Below are positions 1,869 through 13,902 of a DNA stretch of 13,902 nucleotides, in pieces. The notes under the pieces are model-generated. The model had not been told where the DNA came from, made no database searches, and worked only from the letters and a program-made list of their open reading frames with translations. Both the position numbers and the translations under genes were made by a program. This stretch comes from a virus (lineage: Duplodnaviria; Heunggongvirae; Uroviricota; Caudoviricetes), in the IMG/VR virus record IMGVR_UViG_2541047917_000005, one strand, 5' to 3'. Within the stretch, counting starts at the first letter, position 1. The number at the start of each line of letters is the position of its first letter.

Positions 1869-1895
1869 AGGGGAGCATATGACACATAAAACAAA

Positions 1896-1915
1896 GGCGA
1901 CCGGGGGCGGTCGCC
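1896..1915 (-). terminator. Perfect 8-bp stem hairpin, terminator-like on the minus strand
   Basis: GGCGACCG-GGGG-CGGTCGCC at 1896-1915. On the minus strand it is followed by a T-rich run (TTTGTTTTAT, reverse complement of 1886-1895). On the plus strand it is followed by AATGGGAAAAC, which is not terminator-like. Confidence 0.4.
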
Positions 1916-2237
1916 AATGGGAAAACACTAAACATAAGCCCGAACATCATAGCGATTTGCTGGCTGGTGGGCAAATCCTGAGCGGTCCTGCAATTACAGG
2001 AACTACGGCATTGTCGCGGTTAGGTTGTGCTCAACTTTTTTTCACCTCTATATCGCAAGCGCGCCGTAATAAATCGCCTTTATCGCTTCCGCAAAGATCC
2101 TTTTTCTCGAAGCATGATTTTAAGAGAAAGGCGACGACAATTAATAAAACCGCACAGAGTTTCCAATTTATAAATTTTGACATCTTTTACCCCTATGATT
2201 GTCGCCATCGTTCTTCATGTTATGACGTGATTAATGA

Positions 2238-2417
2238 TTACTCGGATTCACTGGCCTTGCGCCGCTGGCGATATTCAACTTCTCGTTTTAATGCCGCAGT
2301 AACAAATTGCCCCGTACTTTCTCCAGGCATTTTTACCGCCTCAACATTGTTCATAACTTCATGCGGAACCCTTGCCGCAACGGTTTGTGATTTTGCGTTT
2401 ACTGCTTTTGTCGCCAT
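2238..2417 (-). CDS. Putative ribbon-helix-helix (CopG/Arc-like) DNA-binding protein; 59 aa, below the ORF-track length cut-off
   Basis: Hand translation of the minus strand: MATKAVNAKSQTVAARVPHEVMNNVEAVKMPGESTGQFVTAALKREVEYRQRRKASESE. Pattern of beta-strand (QTVAARVP), helix (HEVMNNVEAV), Gly turn, helix (FVTAALKREVEY) fits an RHH fold. GAGGGG Shine-Dalgarno lies about 10 nt upstream of the ATG at 2417. Palindromic operator-like repeats sit 50-100 bp upstream of it. The plus-strand frame over the same bases gives a compositionally implausible peptide. Confidence 0.45.
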   Translation of the reverse strand: MATKAVNAKSQTVAARVPHEVMNNVEAVKMPGESTGQFVTAALKREVEYRQRRKASESE

Positions 2418-2467
2418 GTTGTGTACCCCTCATAAAAAACAAATGCAGTATGCAGGAAAAAAAATAA

Positions 2468-2520
2468 GTGTTCAACACTTGACGTGTTCAACACCTGAGT
2501 TTAAATTGGTGTTCAACACC
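2468..2520. promoter_or_regulatory. Three perfect copies of the 11-bp palindrome GTGTTCAACAC overlapping a sigma70-like promoter (operator array)
   Basis: Exact copies at 2468-2478, 2484-2494 and 2509-2519; each is a dyad (GTGTT-C-AACAC). TTGACG (2479-2484) and TAAATT (2502-2507) are spaced 17 bp, so two copies bracket the -35 and the third lies just downstream of the -10. The region is divergent between the minus-strand RHH ORF and the plus-strand Icd-like start at 2617. Confidence 0.5.
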
Positions 2521-2616
2521 TTGTTGGCGCAAGGTGCAGAAACGACGAAACCCGGCAGTGAGCTAACACTAACCGGGCTTCTAACCACCAACGATAGAAA
2601 GCGTATCGAGGTAGCT

Positions 2617-3231
2617 ATGTTAAATCATACCACACACCCGCAAGGGCGGGATTCGCACAACCTGAATAAATACATCTGGCGTTTTATCGCCCTGAGCACG
2701 GCACAACCGCGCGTGATTACCATCGAGGCCACCAGCGAACAGGAAGCACGCCAGAAAAACCAGTTGATCGCCACTGCCAGCCAGGGCTATGATTTACCCG
2801 CACCAGCAAAATCTGGTGCCGGGATTGGCGTCCTGGAAATGTCAAAGGCGATATATGACGCGCCAGCGTCTTTTTTATCGTCCGCATTCGCTCACATCAA
2901 AGTTATGGTGGGCTGGGCGGGGGCTTCTTCGGAAGCGCCGGTTCCCTTTGACGCCGGTTACGCCAACCCCGTTCAGTCCACCGCCAGCGAAATTGGCGTT
3001 TCCTGCGGTGGAAATTCTTCACTGTCAAAGGAGGCTGCCAACATGGCTACTATCCCTACCCTCGTACATTCTCAAACTGCCTTTATCTGGCGCTTTATCA
3101 TCTTTGGCGCGTCAGAATCTCAAATCGTCCACGTAACCGCCTGGACGGAAGGCGAAGCGCGTAACCGTTGCCCGTCCGGTTGTGTCGCTGTATTCGCCGC
3201 CCGTATTCGTCAGGGGGTGAGTCATGCATAA
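2617..3231 (+). CDS. Icd-like (host cell division inhibitor-like) protein with two tandem Icd-like domains in one frame
   Basis: ATG 2617 preceded by GAGG (2608-2611). Two related segments: NKYIWRFIALSTAQPRVITIEATSEQEARQ and QTAFIWRFIIFGASESQIVHVTAWTEGEARN..AVFAARIRQGV, recognised from memory as the Icd-like family of P4-like islands. No stop codon separates the two copies. The stop-free frame actually extends from 1879, but that upstream part is judged non-coding. Confidence 0.5.
   Translation: MLNHTTHPQGRDSHNLNKYIWRFIALSTAQPRVITIEATSEQEARQKNQLIATASQGYDLPAPAKSGAGIGVLEMSKAIYDAPASFLSSAFAHIKVMVGWAGASSEAPVPFDAGYANPVQSTASEIGVSCGGNSSLSKEAANMATIPTLVHSQTAFIWRFIIFGASESQIVHVTAWTEGEARNRCPSGCVAVFAARIRQGVSHA
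3043..3231 (+). CDS. Second Icd-like copy as a possible independent cistron (alternative to the 2617 start)
   Basis: Near-consensus Shine-Dalgarno AAGGAGG (3028-3034) 8 nt before ATG 3043. 62-aa product MATIPTLVHSQTAFIWRFIIFGASESQIVHVTAWTEGEARNRCPSGCVAVFAARIRQGVSHA has a typical Icd-like size. Confidence 0.45.
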   Translation: MATIPTLVHSQTAFIWRFIIFGASESQIVHVTAWTEGEARNRCPSGCVAVFAARIRQGVSHA

Positions 3232-3456: not shown

Positions 3457-3756
3457 ATGAAAAATAAAAATTCTGGCTTTACCGCCAGCGGCCCTGCTCG
3501 TCCTGAATTTATGAACGGCGATATTTACCGCGATAAATATGGCGGCATGGTAACGATTAAAGGCGTGGCAGAACGGCGCATCACCTACGGTCGTGAAGGC
3601 TACGAATATGATTGCGTGATGCCTGTTTATCAGTTTCGGCGTGATTTTTCTCTGGTACAGGCAGCGCCCCGCAGTAAACCAACCAGCAGGGAGAAAGCAC
3701 GCGCCAATATTCAGGAAATAAAAAAGATGCTTAACGTATTCAGGGGTAAAAAATGA
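3457..3756 (+). CDS. Hypothetical protein (99 aa), translationally coupled to the primase/helicase
   Basis: ATG 3457 with GGAGA upstream. Its stop TGA overlaps the ATG of the next gene (ATGA at 3753-3756). No family recognised by eye. Confidence 0.55.
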   Translation: MKNKNSGFTASGPARPEFMNGDIYRDKYGGMVTIKGVAERRITYGREGYEYDCVMPVYQFRRDFSLVQAAPRSKPTSREKARANIQEIKKMLNVFRGKK

Positions 3757-5501
3757 AACTGGCACCGAACGTAAAAAAACAGCCACGCGGAATAAAACAC
3801 AAAGACACAGAGGTAATTATTTTCGCGGGTAGTGATGCCTGGTCGCACGCGAAACAATGGCAGGAGCAGGATGGCCCCGCATCCGGCGATAATGTGCCGC
3901 CTGTGTGGCTTGGGCCAAATCAGCTTGCCGAACTTGATGCACTGAAAATTGTTCCGGATGGAAAAAAACGCGTAAGGCTGTACCAGGCCGGAGAACTGGA
4001 TTTGGTGGAGACCAAAAAGATTGGTCAGAAGCTGGCGGCGGCAGATATTCAGGACGCAAATTTTTACCCCGAAGGAATGCACGTCCAGAAGTGTGAAAAC
4101 TGGCGGCGCTATCTGAATGCTGAGCGTGAAAATATTGCCGCAGGGCTTACCATGCCGGAGCAGAAAAATACGCAACTGGCACAAATGGCAGACAGTGAGC
4201 GCGCACAGATGCTTGCTGGTCGATTTGATGGCGTTTGTGTGCATCCGGAAAGTGAAATCGTTCACGTATGGCGCGGCGGGGTATGGTGTCCGGTCAGCAC
4301 AATGGAACTTAGCCGCGAAATGGTGGCGATCTATTCAGAGCACAGGGCCACTTTCAGCAAGCGCGTAATCAATAACGCCGTGGAAGCGTTAAAAGTTATT
4401 GCCGAACCAATGGGCGAGCCGTCCGGCGATTTGCTGCCGTTCGCCAATGGTGCGCTTGACCTGAAAACGGGGGAATTTTCCCCGCACACGCCGGAGAACT
4501 GGATCACCACGAACAACGGCATTGAGTACACGCCACCAGCACCAGGGGAGAACATCCGCGATAACGCGCCAAACTTTCATAAATGGCTTGAGCACGCAGC
4601 CGGAAAAGACTCGCGCAAGATGATGCGTATATGTGCCGCGCTGTACATGATTATGGCGAACCGGTACGACTGGCAGATGTTTATTGAGGCCACCGGAGAC
4701 GGCGGGAGCGGTAAAAGTACATTCACACACATCGCCAGCCTTCTGGCAGGGAAACAGAACACGGTGAGCGCGGAGATGACATCGCTTGATGATGCTGGTG
4801 GGCGTGCGCAGGTTGTCGGGAGTCGTCTTATCGTCCTGGCAGACCAGCCGAAATATACAGGCGAAGGCACGGGCATCAAGAAAATCACGGGCGGCGACCC
4901 CGTGGAAATCAACCCGAAATATGAAAAGCGTTTCACTACGGTAATCAGGGCGGTGGTGCTGGCGACCAATAACAACCCGATGATATTCACCGAACGGGCC
5001 GGAGGCGTGTCACGTCGTCGGGTTATTTTCCGCTTCGACAATATCGTAAGCGAGGCAGAAAAAGACAGGGAGCTACCGGAAAAGATTGCGGCTGAAATCC
5101 CTGTCATTATCCGCCGCTTGCTGGCGAACTTTGCCGACCCTGAAAAGGCACGGGCTTTACTCATTGAACAGCGAGACGGTGATGAAGCACTGGCGATAAA
5201 GCAGCAGACGGATCCGGTTATTGAGTTTTGCCAGTTCCTTAACTTTCTGGAAGAAGCACGCGGCCTGATGATGGGCGGCGGCGGTGACTCTTCCAGGTAC
5301 ACGACCAGAAACAGCCTTTACCGCGTCTATCTGGCGTTTATGGCGTATGCAGGCAGGAGCAAACCGCTAAACGTAAATGACTTTGGCAAGGCTATGAAGC
5401 CAGCCGCGAAAGTTTACGGACATGAATATATTACGCGGAAAGTTAAGGGAGTAACGCAGACTAACGCAATAACAACAGACGATTGCGACGCGTTTTTATA
5501 A
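3753..5501 (+). CDS. DNA primase/helicase of the phage/plasmid primase P4 family (D5_N-like region plus SF3 P-loop NTPase)
   Basis: 582 aa. Walker A GDGGSGKST encoded at 4695-4721. Upstream region LLPFANGALDLKTGEFSPHTPENWITTNNGIEYTP is typical of the P4-alpha / D5 N-terminal-like domain. AGGGG Shine-Dalgarno 6 nt upstream of the ATG. The N-terminal ~200 aa (VIIFAGSDAWSH...) could be toprim-like but is not confidently assigned. Confidence 0.9.
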   Translation: MKLAPNVKKQPRGIKHKDTEVIIFAGSDAWSHAKQWQEQDGPASGDNVPPVWLGPNQLAELDALKIVPDGKKRVRLYQAGELDLVETKKIGQKLAAADIQDANFYPEGMHVQKCENWRRYLNAERENIAAGLTMPEQKNTQLAQMADSERAQMLAGRFDGVCVHPESEIVHVWRGGVWCPVSTMELSREMVAIYSEHRATFSKRVINNAVEALKVIAEPMGEPSGDLLPFANGALDLKTGEFSPHTPENWITTNNGIEYTPPAPGENIRDNAPNFHKWLEHAAGKDSRKMMRICAALYMIMANRYDWQMFIEATGDGGSGKSTFTHIASLLAGKQNTVSAEMTSLDDAGGRAQVVGSRLIVLADQPKYTGEGTGIKKITGGDPVEINPKYEKRFTTVIRAVVLATNNNPMIFTERAGGVSRRRVIFRFDNIVSEAEKDRELPEKIAAEIPVIIRRLLANFADPEKARALLIEQRDGDEALAIKQQTDPVIEFCQFLNFLEEARGLMMGGGGDSSRYTTRNSLYRVYLAFMAYAGRSKPLNVNDFGKAMKPAAKVYGHEYITRKVKGVTQTNAITTDDCDAFL

Positions 5502-5512
5502 TTTTTGGCAAT

Positions 5513-5745
5513 TGCTGTCTACCTTGTCTACCTGATTACATAAAAGTTGTTTTAATTCAGTGTATTAATTTAGGTAGACAGCTTTTTTTTACTGTCTACA
5601 AGCTGTCTACCTTGTCTACCTGTTTTTGTAGCCAGCCGGAGGGATGAGTAGACATCAGGTAGATAGCGATTTTTTACTGTCTACTTCCATTAAACCCGCG
5701 TCATTACTGGCCTGAGCATCTATCAGGTAGACAGAGTAGACAAGG
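5513..5745. repeat. Putative replication origin: about 11 iterons with core TGTCTAC(C) in both orientations, flanking an AT-rich stretch
   Basis: Plus-orientation copies at 5515-5523, 5524-5532, 5592-5600, 5603-5611, 5612-5620, 5677-5685. Inverted copies (GGTAGACA) at 5573-5582, 5648-5654, 5658-5665, 5726-5734, 5736-5745. AT-rich segment 5533-5572. Lies immediately 3' of the primase/helicase gene. Confidence 0.6.
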
Positions 5746-5790
5746 TGGGGGTAGGTCCAAAACTTTTTAAACGAGGGGGTAAAAATAAAA

Positions 5791-6048
5791 ATGCACACAT
5801 CAGGAAAATTTAACAATCAGAAGAAATCACATAACCGCGCCATTGACCTTACAGAGCACTGGCTGAGGGTGGCGATAAAAATCATCGACCGCAACGCGGG
5901 AGAAGGATACGCGAAAGCACATCCTGAACTAATAAGCGCATTCATGACCACAGCGGCGGCAAACTTTGCCACGCTGACAGAACGGGAGATTGCCGAAGCG
6001 GAACAGGTAACAACCATCAACGTTAAAACCGGAGAGGTGGAATCATGA
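5791..6048 (+). CDS. Hypothetical small protein (85 aa)
   Basis: ATG 5791 with GAGGGGG upstream (5773-5779). Stop overlaps the SSB start (ATGA). No family recognised by eye. Confidence 0.5.
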   Translation: MHTSGKFNNQKKSHNRAIDLTEHWLRVAIKIIDRNAGEGYAKAHPELISAFMTTAAANFATLTEREIAEAEQVTTINVKTGEVES

Positions 6049-6455
6049 CAGCACAGATAGCCGCTTACGGGCGGCTGGTGGCTGACCCGCAGTTAAAGAC
6101 CACCAGCAAGGGCACACAAATGGCTATGGCAAGCATGGCGGTCCCCCTGCCGTGCAATCAGGCAGATGACGGACAGGCGACGATGTGGTTATCCGTCCTG
6201 GCGTTTGGCAGACAGGCCGACGCACTGGCAAAACACCACAAAGGCGAGCTGGTGAGCGTGGCGGGTAACATGCAGGTAAGCCAGTGGACAGGCCAGAACG
6301 GCGAAACGCGGCAGGGCTGGCAGGTTATTGCAGACAGCGTAATCAGTGCCAGAACGGCGCGACCTGGTGGGAGCCGACGCAAGACCACAGGCACACAGGG
6401 TAATCAGCCACCAGCGGGAGGCGATGACCCTTACGGTGATGATATTCCGTTCTGA
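6045..6455 (+). CDS. ssb: Single-stranded DNA-binding protein
   Basis: 136 aa. OB-fold-like N-terminal region (GRLVADPQLKTTSKG...WLSVLAFGRQADALAKHHKGELVSVAGNMQVSQWTGQNGETRQGWQVIAD), a Gly/Pro-rich linker and the hallmark C-terminal acidic tail ending DDIPF. GGAGAGG Shine-Dalgarno before ATG 6045. Confidence 0.85.
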   Translation: MTAQIAAYGRLVADPQLKTTSKGTQMAMASMAVPLPCNQADDGQATMWLSVLAFGRQADALAKHHKGELVSVAGNMQVSQWTGQNGETRQGWQVIADSVISARTARPGGSRRKTTGTQGNQPPAGGDDPYGDDIPF

Positions 6456-6465
6456 GAGGGTGACG

Positions 6466-6723
6466 ATGGTACATGACCGCATAGCGGAAGAACTCGAGGC
6501 GAAAGGCTTTTACCGGAGAGCGTCGGCGCGATGGGGTGAAGTCATGCTACTGGTGGAGACAGACAAGGAACGGGAGCACATCACGATGCGACGGCTGGAA
6601 TGTTGCAGAAAATCGACAAGGCCAGCACTCGGGCCGGACAATTTCAGCGATATTAAAAAAGCCGCTGATCGTGTTTATGCTGAAATGGGATTAGATAAAT
6701 TAAAGGGGGAAACATGCCAGTAA
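6466..6723 (+). CDS. PerC-family-like transcriptional regulator
   Basis: 85-aa product MVHDRIAEELEAKGFYRRASARWGEVMLL... resembles the PerC/Pch family motif (AEeLEakG.yRRAa.RW.eVm), recalled from memory. ATG 6466 is 5 nt after GAGGG. The ORF-track version starting at 6346 is a 5' extension that overlaps ssb. Confidence 0.6.
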   Translation: MVHDRIAEELEAKGFYRRASARWGEVMLLVETDKEREHITMRRLECCRKSTRPALGPDNFSDIKKAADRVYAEMGLDKLKGETCQ

Positions 6724-6974
6724 CCACAGAGGAAATTAAACGACACCGCGAATTATTCGGCCTTGAACATCCGGCCCACACGACAACGGAGCGTTATCGC
6801 CAGCACCTGGCGGCGGGGGCGATATTCTGGGTTGATCATCATGGTTTTTTACGCAGCACGCTTTCCGGTGAAATTCTGGCGGCTGGTCCTGAACAGATTG
6901 ATGCGCTCATCGCATATCTGGAAAAGGTGAAGCCCCGCACAGTGCAATCAGTACCACCGGAAGACGTTAATTAA
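6714..6974 (+). CDS. Hypothetical protein (86 aa)
   Basis: ATG 6714 preceded by AAGGGGGA; overlaps the PerC-like stop. Followed directly by a strong terminator. No family recognised by eye. Confidence 0.5.
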   Translation: MPVTTEEIKRHRELFGLEHPAHTTTERYRQHLAAGAIFWVDHHGFLRSTLSGEILAAGPEQIDALIAYLEKVKPRTVQSVPPEDVN

Positions 6975-6981
6975 TGGCCCA

Positions 6982-7007
6982 GCCCTGGTTTAACCAGGGC
7001 TTTTTTT
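6982..7007 (+). terminator. Rho-independent terminator closing the early/replication module
   Basis: GCCCTGG-TTTAA-CCAGGGC stem-loop (6982-7000) followed by TTTTTTT (7001-7007), 8 nt after the TAA at 6972-6974. Confidence 0.7.
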
Positions 7008-7129
7008 GTCAGCTTTTGTAAATTATTTGTGCGTGGTTGTTCGTGGTTGTTCAGCGGCATGGCTGGCTTATTTTATCAGGCCCGAACCGTGGTTATTCTC
7101 GCCACTGTTGCCAGGACGCTGGGACCATT

Positions 7130-7168
7130 TTCCCGCCTGTTAATCTCATCAGCGTTAACAGGCGGGAA
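7130..7168. promoter_or_regulatory. Perfect 14-bp inverted repeat about 90 bp upstream of the capsid gene
   Basis: TTCCCGCCTGTTAA (7130-7143), 11-nt spacer, TTAACAGGCGGGAA (7155-7168). Not followed by a T-run. A tandem 10-bp direct repeat CGTGGTTGTT x2 lies at 7032-7051 in the same leader. Confidence 0.3.
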
Positions 7169-7257
7169 GCCTGCATCGGTGTGCATTTCTTTTTGTTCTC
7201 GTACCGTGAGTCTTGCCGCGTCCTGGTGTTTTCCTCTTTGCATCAGGACTTTTTTTT

Positions 7258-8427
7258 ATGCCGAGAATTATCGAATTGCGCCAGCAGAAAACCGCCATCA
7301 AAAATCAGATGCGCGACATGCTGGAGAACGCGGAAAAAGAAAACCGCAGCCTTAACGACGCCGAGGGCGCAAAATTTGACGAATTACGCGCTAAAGCTGA
7401 ATCCCTCGATAAAGACATTTCCCGCCTTGAAGCCGTTGCCGACGAAGAGCGCAGCAAGCCAGGTAAAGCCAGCCAGACCACTGACCCCGCAGAACTTCGC
7501 AACTACATCGTAACGGGTGACGTTCGCTCATTATCCACCACCACCAACGGCGGCAAGGACGGTGGTTATACCGTTATCCCTGAGCTTGATCGCGAGGTTA
7601 TGCGGTTACTGAGTGATGAAAGCGTCATGCGAATGATTGCGACGGTGAAAACGGCGAAATCAAACGAATACCAGAAACTGGTTTCCACAGGTGGCGCAAC
7701 GGTGGGGCGTGGCACTGAGGGCAACAAGCGAACCGAAACAGAAACCCCGAAAGTTGAGCGCGTAAGCATCAAACTTAACCCGATCTATGCCTACCCGAAA
7801 ACCACGCAGGAAATCCTGGATTTTTCAGAAGTGGATGTGCTGGGCTGGTTATCGTCTGAAATCGCCGACACGTTCGCCACGACCGAAGAAGATGATTTTG
7901 TAAATGGTGACGGTACTGGCAAGCCGAAGGGTTTCCTGAATTACACCCGTGATACCAACAACGACAAAGCCCGCGCCTTTGGCACCATTGAAAAAATGGT
8001 TACAACAACCGACGCCATTACAGCGGACGAACTGATCGACATCCTCTACAAGCTGAAAGCGAAATACCGTAAGAACGCCGTATGGGTGATGAACTCGAGT
8101 ACAGCGGCAGCATTGCAGAAGCTGAAAAACCAGAGCGGTGATTACGTATGGCGTGACAGCCTCAAAGAGGGCGCACCTGACACATTGCTGGGCCGTCCTG
8201 TTTATTACCTGGAAAGTATGCCGGACATCGGCAAAGGCAAAACGCCGCTGGCTGTCGGTGACTTTAAGCGCGGTTATTTCATCGTTGACCATGAAACGGG
8301 GATCCGTACCCGACCGGACAACATTACAGAGCCGGGTTTCTACAAGGTACACACGGACAAATACATCGGCGGCGGGGTTGTTGACTCCCGCGCGATAAAA
8401 GTCCTCGAGATGAAAAACGGCGGTTAA
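7258..8427 (+). CDS. Major capsid protein, HK97 family
   Basis: About 389 aa from ATG 7258. N-terminal coiled-coil delta-domain-like segment (ELRQQKTAIKNQMRDMLENAEKENRSLNDAEGAKFDELRAKAESLDKDISRLE) followed by an HK97-fold-like body (…GDFKRGYFIVDHETGIRTRPDNITEPGFYKVHTDKYIGGGVVDSRAIKVLEMK). The track start at 7213 is a TTG extension; no clear Shine-Dalgarno for either start. Confidence 0.9.
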   Translation: MPRIIELRQQKTAIKNQMRDMLENAEKENRSLNDAEGAKFDELRAKAESLDKDISRLEAVADEERSKPGKASQTTDPAELRNYIVTGDVRSLSTTTNGGKDGGYTVIPELDREVMRLLSDESVMRMIATVKTAKSNEYQKLVSTGGATVGRGTEGNKRTETETPKVERVSIKLNPIYAYPKTTQEILDFSEVDVLGWLSSEIADTFATTEEDDFVNGDGTGKPKGFLNYTRDTNNDKARAFGTIEKMVTTTDAITADELIDILYKLKAKYRKNAVWVMNSSTAAALQKLKNQSGDYVWRDSLKEGAPDTLLGRPVYYLESMPDIGKGKTPLAVGDFKRGYFIVDHETGIRTRPDNITEPGFYKVHTDKYIGGGVVDSRAIKVLEMKNGG

Positions 8428-13612: not shown

Positions 13613-13902
13613 CGAGAATGAGCGAAACCGAACTACTAAAAATAATCCGCCGCGTTACCGGAATCAGCCCGGCAGCAGGCAAACGTGAGGCCACGCAGCC
13701 GGAAACTGTCACCGCTGAAAATTACGCGCGTGTGGTGGCTGAGGTGATGCGCCGTGATGGTATAGAACTTAATGGCGTGGATATGCGCAACATACGAACC
13801 AGAGTTCTTGAGTTGCTGGCCTACCGTCGCCGCGTGGAGATGTATCGGGAGAAGGAGAAAATAACGTACCACTGGAAGAAGCCGGAGCGGTTGCGGCGGT
13901 AA
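13609..13902 (+). CDS. Hypothetical protein (97 aa), stop at the last base of the window
   Basis: ATG 13609 overlaps the terL stop (ATGA); alternative ATG at 13618. Charged, helical-looking; no family recognised by eye. Confidence 0.45.
   Translation: MTRMSETELLKIIRRVTGISPAAGKREATQPETVTAENYARVVAEVMRRDGIELNGVDMRNIRTRVLELLAYRRRVEMYREKEKITYHWKKPERLRR

Follow-up and report, generated by a model that had tools for sequence, protein, structure and literature searches.

A PchE-type PerC-family gene next to the replication genes of an Escherichia coli capsid-forming phage-inducible chromosomal island

Results

The element in the analysed window, a 13,902-nucleotide stretch of viral DNA (IMG/VR record IMGVR_UViG_2541047917_000005), is an E. 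coli capsid-forming phage-inducible chromosomal island (cf-PICI). The cf-PICI gene set is present and comprises int, alpA, primase/rep, capsid, protease, portal, head-tail connectors, HNH, TerS and TerL. No tail or lysis genes were found in the island, of which the window covers the part up to position 13,902, short of the far end and the att sites. The integrase (1-1239) is followed by AlpA (about 1659-1868), a YlcI/YnfO gene on the minus strand (2238-2417), a DUF4222/RgdR homologue (3457-3756) and a D5-type primase (3753-5501). The packaging operon, which extends from 7258 onward, encodes the HK97-type capsid, protease, portal, head closure, connector, HNH, TerS and TerL. Its first gene is the HK97-type major capsid gene (7258-8427, plus strand; Pfam Phage_capsid, 243.9 bits), whose start is most likely the ATG at 7258, as annotated for the relatives L001 and Sakai, and not the TTG at 7213 given in the list of open reading frames. 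The gene order is identical to that of Sakai Sp7, also named O-island 51 or CP-933C, which is EcCIEDL933, the prototype cf-PICI (bioRxiv 10.1101/2022.09.08.507074; PMC3378721). The two islands share the element type (int, alpA, RgdR/DUF4222, primase, capsid, protease, portal, HNH, TerS and TerL), although int and alpA of the window show only 76% and 66% identity to their Sakai counterparts. Parts of the island were matched in 2269 of 5426 complete E. coli genomes, and only three of these genomes covered 80% or more of it. In strain SB0258h1, the right half of the island, from SSB to TerS, was approximately 100% identical, while int, alpA and primase reached only 46-49%.

Between the primase and the packaging operon lies a short unit of four genes, ORF 5791, SSB, PerC and ORF 6714, with an origin upstream and a strong intrinsic terminator downstream. 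The replication-origin region (5502-5790, no strand assigned) was delimited from the sequence and from an alignment of its iterons, (C/T)TGTCTAC(C), which occur in both orientations. The iteron sequence varies with the primase type, the alignment giving TGTTCACC in L001 and CGGGTTA in Sakai. With a GC content of 0.365-0.38, the region ranks with the most AT-rich stretches of the island. It probably also contains the promoter of the downstream unit, as the transcript of Sakai pchE starts 10 nt upstream of ECs_1586, the homologue of ORF 5791 (PMC7369912). A sigma-70 promoter scan of positions 5400-7400 revealed no plus-strand site upstream of ORF 5791 or in the 250-nt capsid leader; the only plus-strand match was located at 6613-6642, within the PerC gene. 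The first gene of the unit, ORF 5791 (5791-6048, plus strand, phrog_1231), encodes 85 aa, and its product is 83% identical to that of Sakai and 93% identical to that of L001. It is followed by the gene for a 136-aa SSB (6045-6455, plus strand; Pfam SSB, 61 bits), which is 100% identical in IAI39 and L015, and by the PerC-family gene (6466-6723, plus strand). The last gene, ORF 6714 (6714-6974, plus strand, phrog_1957), overlaps the end of PerC by 10 nt. Its 86-aa product is 41% identical to Sakai ECs_1589, and its AF2 model, built from a five-sequence alignment, reached a pLDDT of 58 and was unfit for a fold search. The unit is closed by the intrinsic terminator T1 (6981-7008, plus strand), in which a hairpin at 6981-7001, with a 9-bp G+C-rich stem and a 3-nt loop, precedes a U7 tract (-16 kcal/mol, z = -3.0); a counterpart hairpin is found in Sakai and CFT073. 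No PADLOC defence model matched PerC or the six neighbouring small ORFs. The PerC gene thus sits between the replication genes (primase and SSB) and the capsid gene, as stated in an earlier reading made from the sequence only (hereafter the sequence-only reading). That reading had also described the gene as the last regulator before a terminator and the capsid operon. The terminator is there, but ORF 6714 intervenes between it and PerC.

The PerC gene starts with ATG at 6466 and ends with TAA at 6721-6723, and its translation is exactly the 85-aa product quoted in the sequence-only reading. A Shine-Dalgarno-like GAGAGGG is located about 5 nt 5' of the ATG, right behind the SSB stop codon. The product matched the Pfam PerC profile (PF06069) with 124.3 bits (E = 2.5e-36), far above the gathering score of 22.6, and residues 1-81 of the protein were aligned with positions 1-81 of the 90 profile positions; PHROG phrog_994 was matched with 127.5 bits. 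The PerC/Pch-like protein that had been proposed for this mobile element was therefore borne out by the profile search. The motif on which that proposal was based, AEELEAKGFYRRASARWGEVM, corresponds to residues 7-27 (nucleotides 6484-6546). It is included in a conserved core of three predicted TPR-like helices, formed by residues 7-50 (6484-6615, plus strand). All the near-invariant residues of the family, i.e., those conserved in 90% or more of 134 family representatives (A7, L10, E11, R17, R18, A19, R22, W23 and C46), are present in the window protein. An identical protein, WP_021546407.1 of E. coli SB0258h1, is annotated in RefSeq as 'PerC family transcriptional regulator'. The gene is thus already annotated, its orthologue PchE has been studied, and it represents no new type of element.

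The closest studied relative is PchE of E. coli O157:H7 Sakai/EDL933 (ECs_1588), which was 74% identical over 82 aa and whose gene sits in the same slot, with SSB in front of it and a small ORF, then the HK97-type capsid operon, behind it. The identity to the longer PchA was only 43% over 76 aa; therefore, by its similarities, the gene is a group 3 Pch (PchE-type) in the published classification (PMC6265319). The two PchE-type genes differ in several respects. PchE has 90 aa, the usual length of the family, while the window protein has 85 and has lost the conserved IWRNY end. The stop codon of the window gene overlaps the next ORF, whereas a 124-nt gap follows pchE in Sakai. The C-terminal third of the window gene, from about codon 50, is of a different lineage than that of PchE (dS of 1.1 versus 0.19). 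In comparison to both Sakai and IAI39, the gene was mosaic, with dS values of 0.12-0.19 in codons 1-50 and of 1.1-2.0 in the tail, and most E. coli matches to the region span only window positions 5702-6624, ending inside the PerC gene.

The loss of the IWRNY end, the recombination joint within the gene and the dispensability of PerC across islands described below would fit a decaying, functionless remnant whose C-terminus was cut off in the joining of the gene to ORF 6714. However, the dN/dS values against ten orthologues were 0.15-0.39 wherever dS could be estimated, well under 1 in core and tail, which identifies it as a coding gene under constraint. The reading frame and the ribosome-binding site are intact, identical copies occur in several independent sequences, and the CFT073 homologue, with 82 aa, is short as well. 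We consider it highly improbable that the gene is such a remnant.

The AF2 model of the PerC protein had a pLDDT of 82, with values above 90 for residues 11-50, and placed helices at residues 5-13, 16-27, 33-50 and 60-73. The protein is accordingly predicted to be small and all-helical, with a TPR-like three-helix core in residues 1-50 and a more variable helical tail. No helix-turn-helix or other recognisable DNA-binding fold was found in the model. A Foldseek search of the model against the PDB gave nothing below E = 1, and the sequence had no PDB match even at E ≤ 10. Word-indexed homologue searches returned 42 matches for PerC and 4 for ORF 6714, all of them close; the diversity of the family was supplied by an exhaustive profile search, which revealed a small family: of 1.84 billion searched, 245 representatives reached E ≤ 1e-3. 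The Pfam PerC profile was matched by 134 of 134 representatives, and 101 of the 134 also matched ANR at E ≤ 0.01 (best E, 6e-12). The window protein itself matched the NCBIfam profile ANR_neg_reg (NF033650) with 17.3 bits (E = 0.003), under the 32-bit cut-off, and the match was in register, covering profile positions 9-51 of 54. Similar ANR_neg_reg matches were obtained with PchE, with PchA and with the CFT073 homologue. The published ANR signature, A10, E14, A22, W26, A29, W43 and R47, is distributed over three helices and includes the motif A-x3-E-x7-A-x3-W (PMC4983702). A7, E11, A19 and W23 of the window protein correspond to ANR A10, E14, A22 and W26 with equal spacing. The ANR proteins Aar, Rnr and Cnr resemble the window protein in size class, in the predicted three-helix core and in the conserved A/E/A/W register. 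The equivalent of ANR A29 is V26, and R42/R43 could match ANR R47. The R-E/D-W motif of other family members reads R-E-H in the window protein, i.e., its W is lost and ANR W43 is not kept, and the window protein differs further from ANR in having an extra fourth helix or tail. Taken by their profile overlap and signature residues, PerC and ANR look like one superfamily, a link that was also suggested for a PICI PerC homologue (PMC11773190).

The capsid leader between T1 and the capsid gene contains several conspicuous elements. Three copies of CGTGGTT(G/A)TTC, at 7032, 7042 and 7088 (7032-7098, plus strand), are partly conserved in Sakai. A perfect 14-nt inverted repeat, TTCCCGCCTGTTAA/TTAACAGGCGGGAA, forms a leader hairpin at 7130-7168 (plus strand; -25 kcal/mol, z = -7.0), which is conserved in Sakai. 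An exact-motif search found this 14-nt inverted repeat in the closest relatives only, so that it is no general cf-PICI feature. A second terminator-like hairpin with a 10-bp stem and a 10-nt loop, followed by U8 (7220-7257, plus strand; -15.4 kcal/mol, z = -4.2), abuts the capsid ATG, and its stem is retained with another loop in Sakai and IAI39. The folding z-score of 7085-7280 was -5.25, and much of this region is conserved with Sakai. The leader was also considered as a site of H-NS silencing on which PerC might act; it is not AT-rich (GC content of 0.48-0.505), and this candidate was rejected.

The sequence-only reading had proposed that PerC activates this late operon, in which case it would act on a promoter between T1 and the capsid gene. 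The Pfam family name, 'transcriptional activator', points in this direction, as does the position of the gene, which in cf-PICIs as well as in classical PICIs lies approximately 535 nt ahead of the capsid ATG. The leader itself, devoid of a sigma-70-like promoter in the scan, offers possible regulatory sites in its three direct repeats and conserved hairpins. A different route, in which AlpA-loaded transcription reads through the terminators, is plausible, because a related AlpA acts as an antiterminator and PICI induction needs alpA. The AlpA of P. aeruginosa, which belongs to the same Pfam family as the island AlpA, is a processive antiterminator (PMC7969949; PMC9371919), and alpA is required for PICI induction (bioRxiv 10.1101/2022.09.08.507074). 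In the literature, we found no paper connecting AlpA antitermination with PICIs, and nothing on PerC, promoters or terminators in the work on cf-PICIs.

The distribution of PerC was determined in 80 IMG/VR loci whose capsid proteins were 70-95% identical to that of the window; this set is redundant, and its members are not independent events. The loci were screened with the proteins of the window and with an HMM built from diverse family representatives, and PerC was sought within 5 kb of the capsid gene. A PerC-family ORF was found in only 8 of the 80 loci, while an ORF 6714 homologue was present upstream of the capsid gene in 67. A match to the primase of the window was detected upstream of the capsid gene in 46 of the 72 PerC-less loci, and in these the stretch from primase to capsid was therefore covered by the search. 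SSB was present in 7 of 8 PerC-positive and 18 of 72 PerC-negative loci (Fisher p = 9.5e-4, calculated on these redundant loci). In PerC-less islands with SSB, the ORF 6714 homologue lies directly behind SSB. Within the clade with 81-82% capsid identity, the 280 nt preceding the capsid ATG were 97-99% identical between PerC-positive and PerC-negative islands, and the capsid gene was 98% or more identical between them.

The gene occurs in a similar position in other elements. In IAI39, it likewise lies directly after SSB and upstream of an HK97-type capsid operon. The CFT073 homologue is found behind replication genes and ahead of a lambda-type capsid/decoration module. The position after replication genes recurs in six other genera; in Pantoea, Erwinia, Lonsdalea, Chimaeribacter and Buttiauxella, the homologue follows a large primase and precedes lipoprotein-like ORFs, and in E. 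albertii it is the last detectable island gene. In phage SfV, a PerC domain forms the C-terminus of orf40, which directly follows the replication gene and precedes Q. Members of the family were also found on 233 plasmids. Judged by this distribution, PerC is an optional gene of cf-PICIs, which moves with the SSB/replication module and not with the capsid operon.

A dedicated activator would be expected to travel with its operon and leader, which PerC does not; the late-operon idea is therefore not supported. PerC is missing from 72 of the 80 capsid-related satellites, including the 46 with an upstream primase match, and the nearly identical leaders are shared by islands with and without it. 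Its homologues follow replication genes in elements with other downstream capsid genes or none, and the model offered no DNA-binding fold. The published expression of the Sakai gene, which is transcribed polycistronically as ECs1586-ECs1587(SSB)-pchE, is on without induction and goes down on SOS (PMC7369912), the opposite of the pattern of a late activator. Overall, we find it very unlikely that PerC is the late activator of the island. The absence of PerC from many islands is also compatible with the gene, where present, stimulating the capsid operon without being essential for it.

PerC could instead be an accessory of the replication module, e.g., by clearing H-NS-type proteins from the AT-rich origin or by aiding SSB or the primase. 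The synteny with primase and SSB is tight and widespread in satellites of several genera and extends to SfV, PerC is statistically associated with SSB in the redundant loci and co-transcribed with it in Sakai, and the adjoining origin has the low GC content given above. However, SSB is kept in 18 and a matching primase in 46 of the 72 PerC-less loci, no data tie any PerC/ANR protein to replication, and the uninduced expression misfits a role confined to replication. A replication accessory is thus, in our assessment, unlikely.

Discussion

According to the comparative data, the PerC-like genes of capsid-forming satellites represent an optional cargo, linked to SSB/replication, rather than a switch for capsid production. 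The reading that we favour, with a probability of roughly 0.6, is that the window protein is an accessory modulator or adaptor that acts on H-NS-family or AraC-type complexes. Based on the PchE orthologue, the PerC unit would be transcribed in the integrated, uninduced island and its expression would drop on SOS induction. The protein would function as a small adaptor and not as a site-specific DNA-binding activator. By altering the occupancy of H-NS-family or AraC-type complexes, or their activity, it would retune the surface and motility programmes of the host during satellite residence. The capsid operon would more likely be reached by transcription passing the terminators after AlpA-dependent induction, with PerC not required.

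The activities reported for the family are consistent with such a role. Over-expression of PchE represses csgD and curli in a ler-independent manner and raises flhDC/fliC expression and motility, and deletion of pchE leads to slightly increased curli production (PMC6265319; PMC7369912). These phenotypes were obtained mainly by plasmid over-expression and with the Sakai/PA20 allele (PMC6265319; PMC7369912). The window allele is 26% diverged from PchE, has a tail of another lineage and is 5 aa shorter, which counts against carrying over the PchE role. [quoted passage not shown] It is associated with chromatin at many loci, and its co-precipitation with H-NS failed, according to unpublished observations (PMC4764244), so that the protein-adaptor step is a prediction for the PerC branch. 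ANR proteins bind AraC-type activators and H-NS, and Aar binds both H-NS and AggR (PMC4983702; PMC5570504). No gene for an AraC-family partner was found in the island when the ORFs of the window were searched with Pfam.

The sequence-only reading had also suggested cross-talk with the host, with ler of LEE-positive hosts as a target. Cross-talk as such is indicated by the PchE literature on csgD/curli and flhDC/fliC, and it is plausible that the window PerC engages in it, though not through ler. PerC of the EPEC EAF plasmid and the group 1 proteins PchA, PchB and PchC of EHEC lambdoid prophages are LEE1 activators or anti-silencers. They belong to the same Pfam family and share the N-terminal core A-E-x-L-E-x-K-G-x-Y-R-R-A-x-x-R-W with the window protein. 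This kinship, together with the 43% identity to PchA, could mark the window gene as an activator of LEE/ler like PerC and PchABC, which would serve attaching-effacing hosts as a virulence regulator. However, PchA has 104 aa with a 28-aa C-terminal extension, which is absent from the window protein; the alignment stops at PchA residue 76, and the tails are unrelated. The group 1 genes are located at a moron-like site near the late region of lambdoid prophages, whereas the window gene is part of a satellite replication module. The nearest relative is PchE, and group 2 and 3 Pch proteins are described as not needed for ler and espA (LEE) expression (PMC6265319, citing Iyoda & Watanabe 2004); LEE activation by the group 3 protein PchE is reported to be absent (PMC6265319; PMC11773190). 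LEE1 fusions reportedly did not respond to the PICI homologues from EDL933 and CFT073 (PMC11773190, citing Porter 2005). Identical or near-identical copies of the gene are carried by a river isolate, by the extra-intestinal strain IAI39 and by other human isolates. We consider it highly improbable that the gene encodes a LEE activator.

A broader picture is put forward only tentatively, and we hold it to be rather improbable. PerC and ANR might form a superfamily of TPR-like mini-adaptors with the primary task of remodelling H-NS-family silencing complexes on the very element that enters the cell. Such mini-adaptors would close the replication or early modules of satellites, lambdoid phages and plasmids, with targets such as the AT-rich origin or the int-alpA control region, and the effects on LEE, curli and flagella would be side effects. 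If so, PerC would help the satellite to escape xenogeneic silencing on entry or induction. Irrespective of this broader picture, the heavy overlap of the PerC and ANR profiles directs further work on PICI PerC proteins to H-NS- and AraC-type partners and to curli, motility and LEE as readouts.

A comparable case is provided by EcCIMP1_025, a PerC-family gene on the classical E. coli PICI EcCIMP1, which was treated as an accessory gene (PMC11773190). An identity of about 40% to the homologues of EDL933 and CFT073 is reported for its product, which in C. rodentium silences LEE1-lux and thus behaves as a LEE1 repressor in an ANR-like manner (PMC11773190).

The ORF at the PerC-capsid junction

The ORF that follows the PerC gene (6714-6974, + strand), which encodes an 86-aa protein assigned to phrog_1957, is tied to the capsid operon far more faithfully than PerC. 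Among the loci with a related capsid (70-95% identical to that of the window), its homologue was present in 67 of 80, compared to 8 of 80 for PerC. The domain and defence-system collections Pfam, NCBIfam and PADLOC returned no match for this ORF, and its AF2 model (pLDDT of 58) was too poor for interpretation. The ORF is a better candidate than PerC for a conserved function at the junction of the PerC and capsid genes. The coding sequence of PerC contains a weak sigma-70-like site (TCGACA, 18-nt spacer, GACAAT; 6613-6642, + strand). As it lies upstream of the ORF, this site may supply the latter with some PerC-independent expression.

The capsid leader (7008-7257), between the terminator and the capsid ATG, was strongly structured (z = -5.25). 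It contained three copies of a CGTGGTT(G/A)TTC repeat, a perfect 14-nt inverted repeat and a terminator-like hairpin with a U8 tract, ending one base upstream of the capsid ATG. The leader was compared with those of the related loci L002 and L014-L094. Each of the 31 distinct leader variants from the resulting 83 loci (31/31) was predicted to form a hairpin in the final ~45 nt upstream of the capsid ATG. The sequences of these pre-ATG hairpins differed, and the U tract was mostly absent.

Probable RNA control module, RgdR homologue and origin-like region

Two Rfam models matched the + strand at the gathering level, namely isrK (2800-2876, 75 bits) and C4 antisense RNA (2901-2988, 82 bits), both within a spurious 450-aa ORF (1879-3231). 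Icd-like genes were annotated at the corresponding region of related islands; therefore, the island seems to carry an RNA control module similar to immI (c4-icd) of phage P1. A DUF4222 protein encoded further downstream (3457-3756, + strand) is the homologue of RgdR (ECs1581; 84% identity), for which a role in regulating type III secretion and motility has been published (PMC3378721). The name-giving motif of RgdR is R-G-D, whereas the protein of the window reads N-G-D at residues 20-22. The primase gene was followed by a replication-origin-like region (5502-5790) of low GC content (0.365-0.38), where the iteron (C/T)TGTCTAC(C) occurs many times and in either orientation. The iteron sequence differed by primase type, being TGTTCACC in the island of strain SB0258h1 and CGGGTTA in that of Sakai.

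Mosaicism of the island and relatives of PerC

The whole island was mosaic: its left part resembled IAI39 and its right part SB0258h1. A recombination joint was identified within the PerC gene itself, at about 6615-6625 (codons about 50-53). The dS of PerC relative to Sakai and IAI39 was 0.12-0.19, rising to 1.1-2.0 past codon 50, and position 6624 was the end point of most E. coli matches.

Of the 134 representatives of the PerC family (P0043-P0185), one had an additional domain, CaiF/GrlA (PF07180, E = 4e-7), and a SEC-C motif was present in another. Such a PerC-GrlA fusion would unite two kinds of LEE regulator within one protein. In loci L005-L010 (Chimaeribacter, Lonsdalea, Pantoea, Erwinia and Buttiauxella), at about 6350-7100, the PerC homologue was encoded after a primase of 850-940 aa. 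Downstream of it came one or two ORFs whose products have lipoprotein-like signal peptides, next an ORF of 108 aa, and finally a gene for a protein of 580-1140 aa. These loci appear to represent a different type of satellite or prophage-like element, possibly one undescribed so far. Another locus, L019 (IMGVR_UViG_2718218136_000009), lacks PerC and carries a capsid gene product only 82% identical to that of the window; its length of 13902 bases, exactly that of the window, is probably a coincidence.
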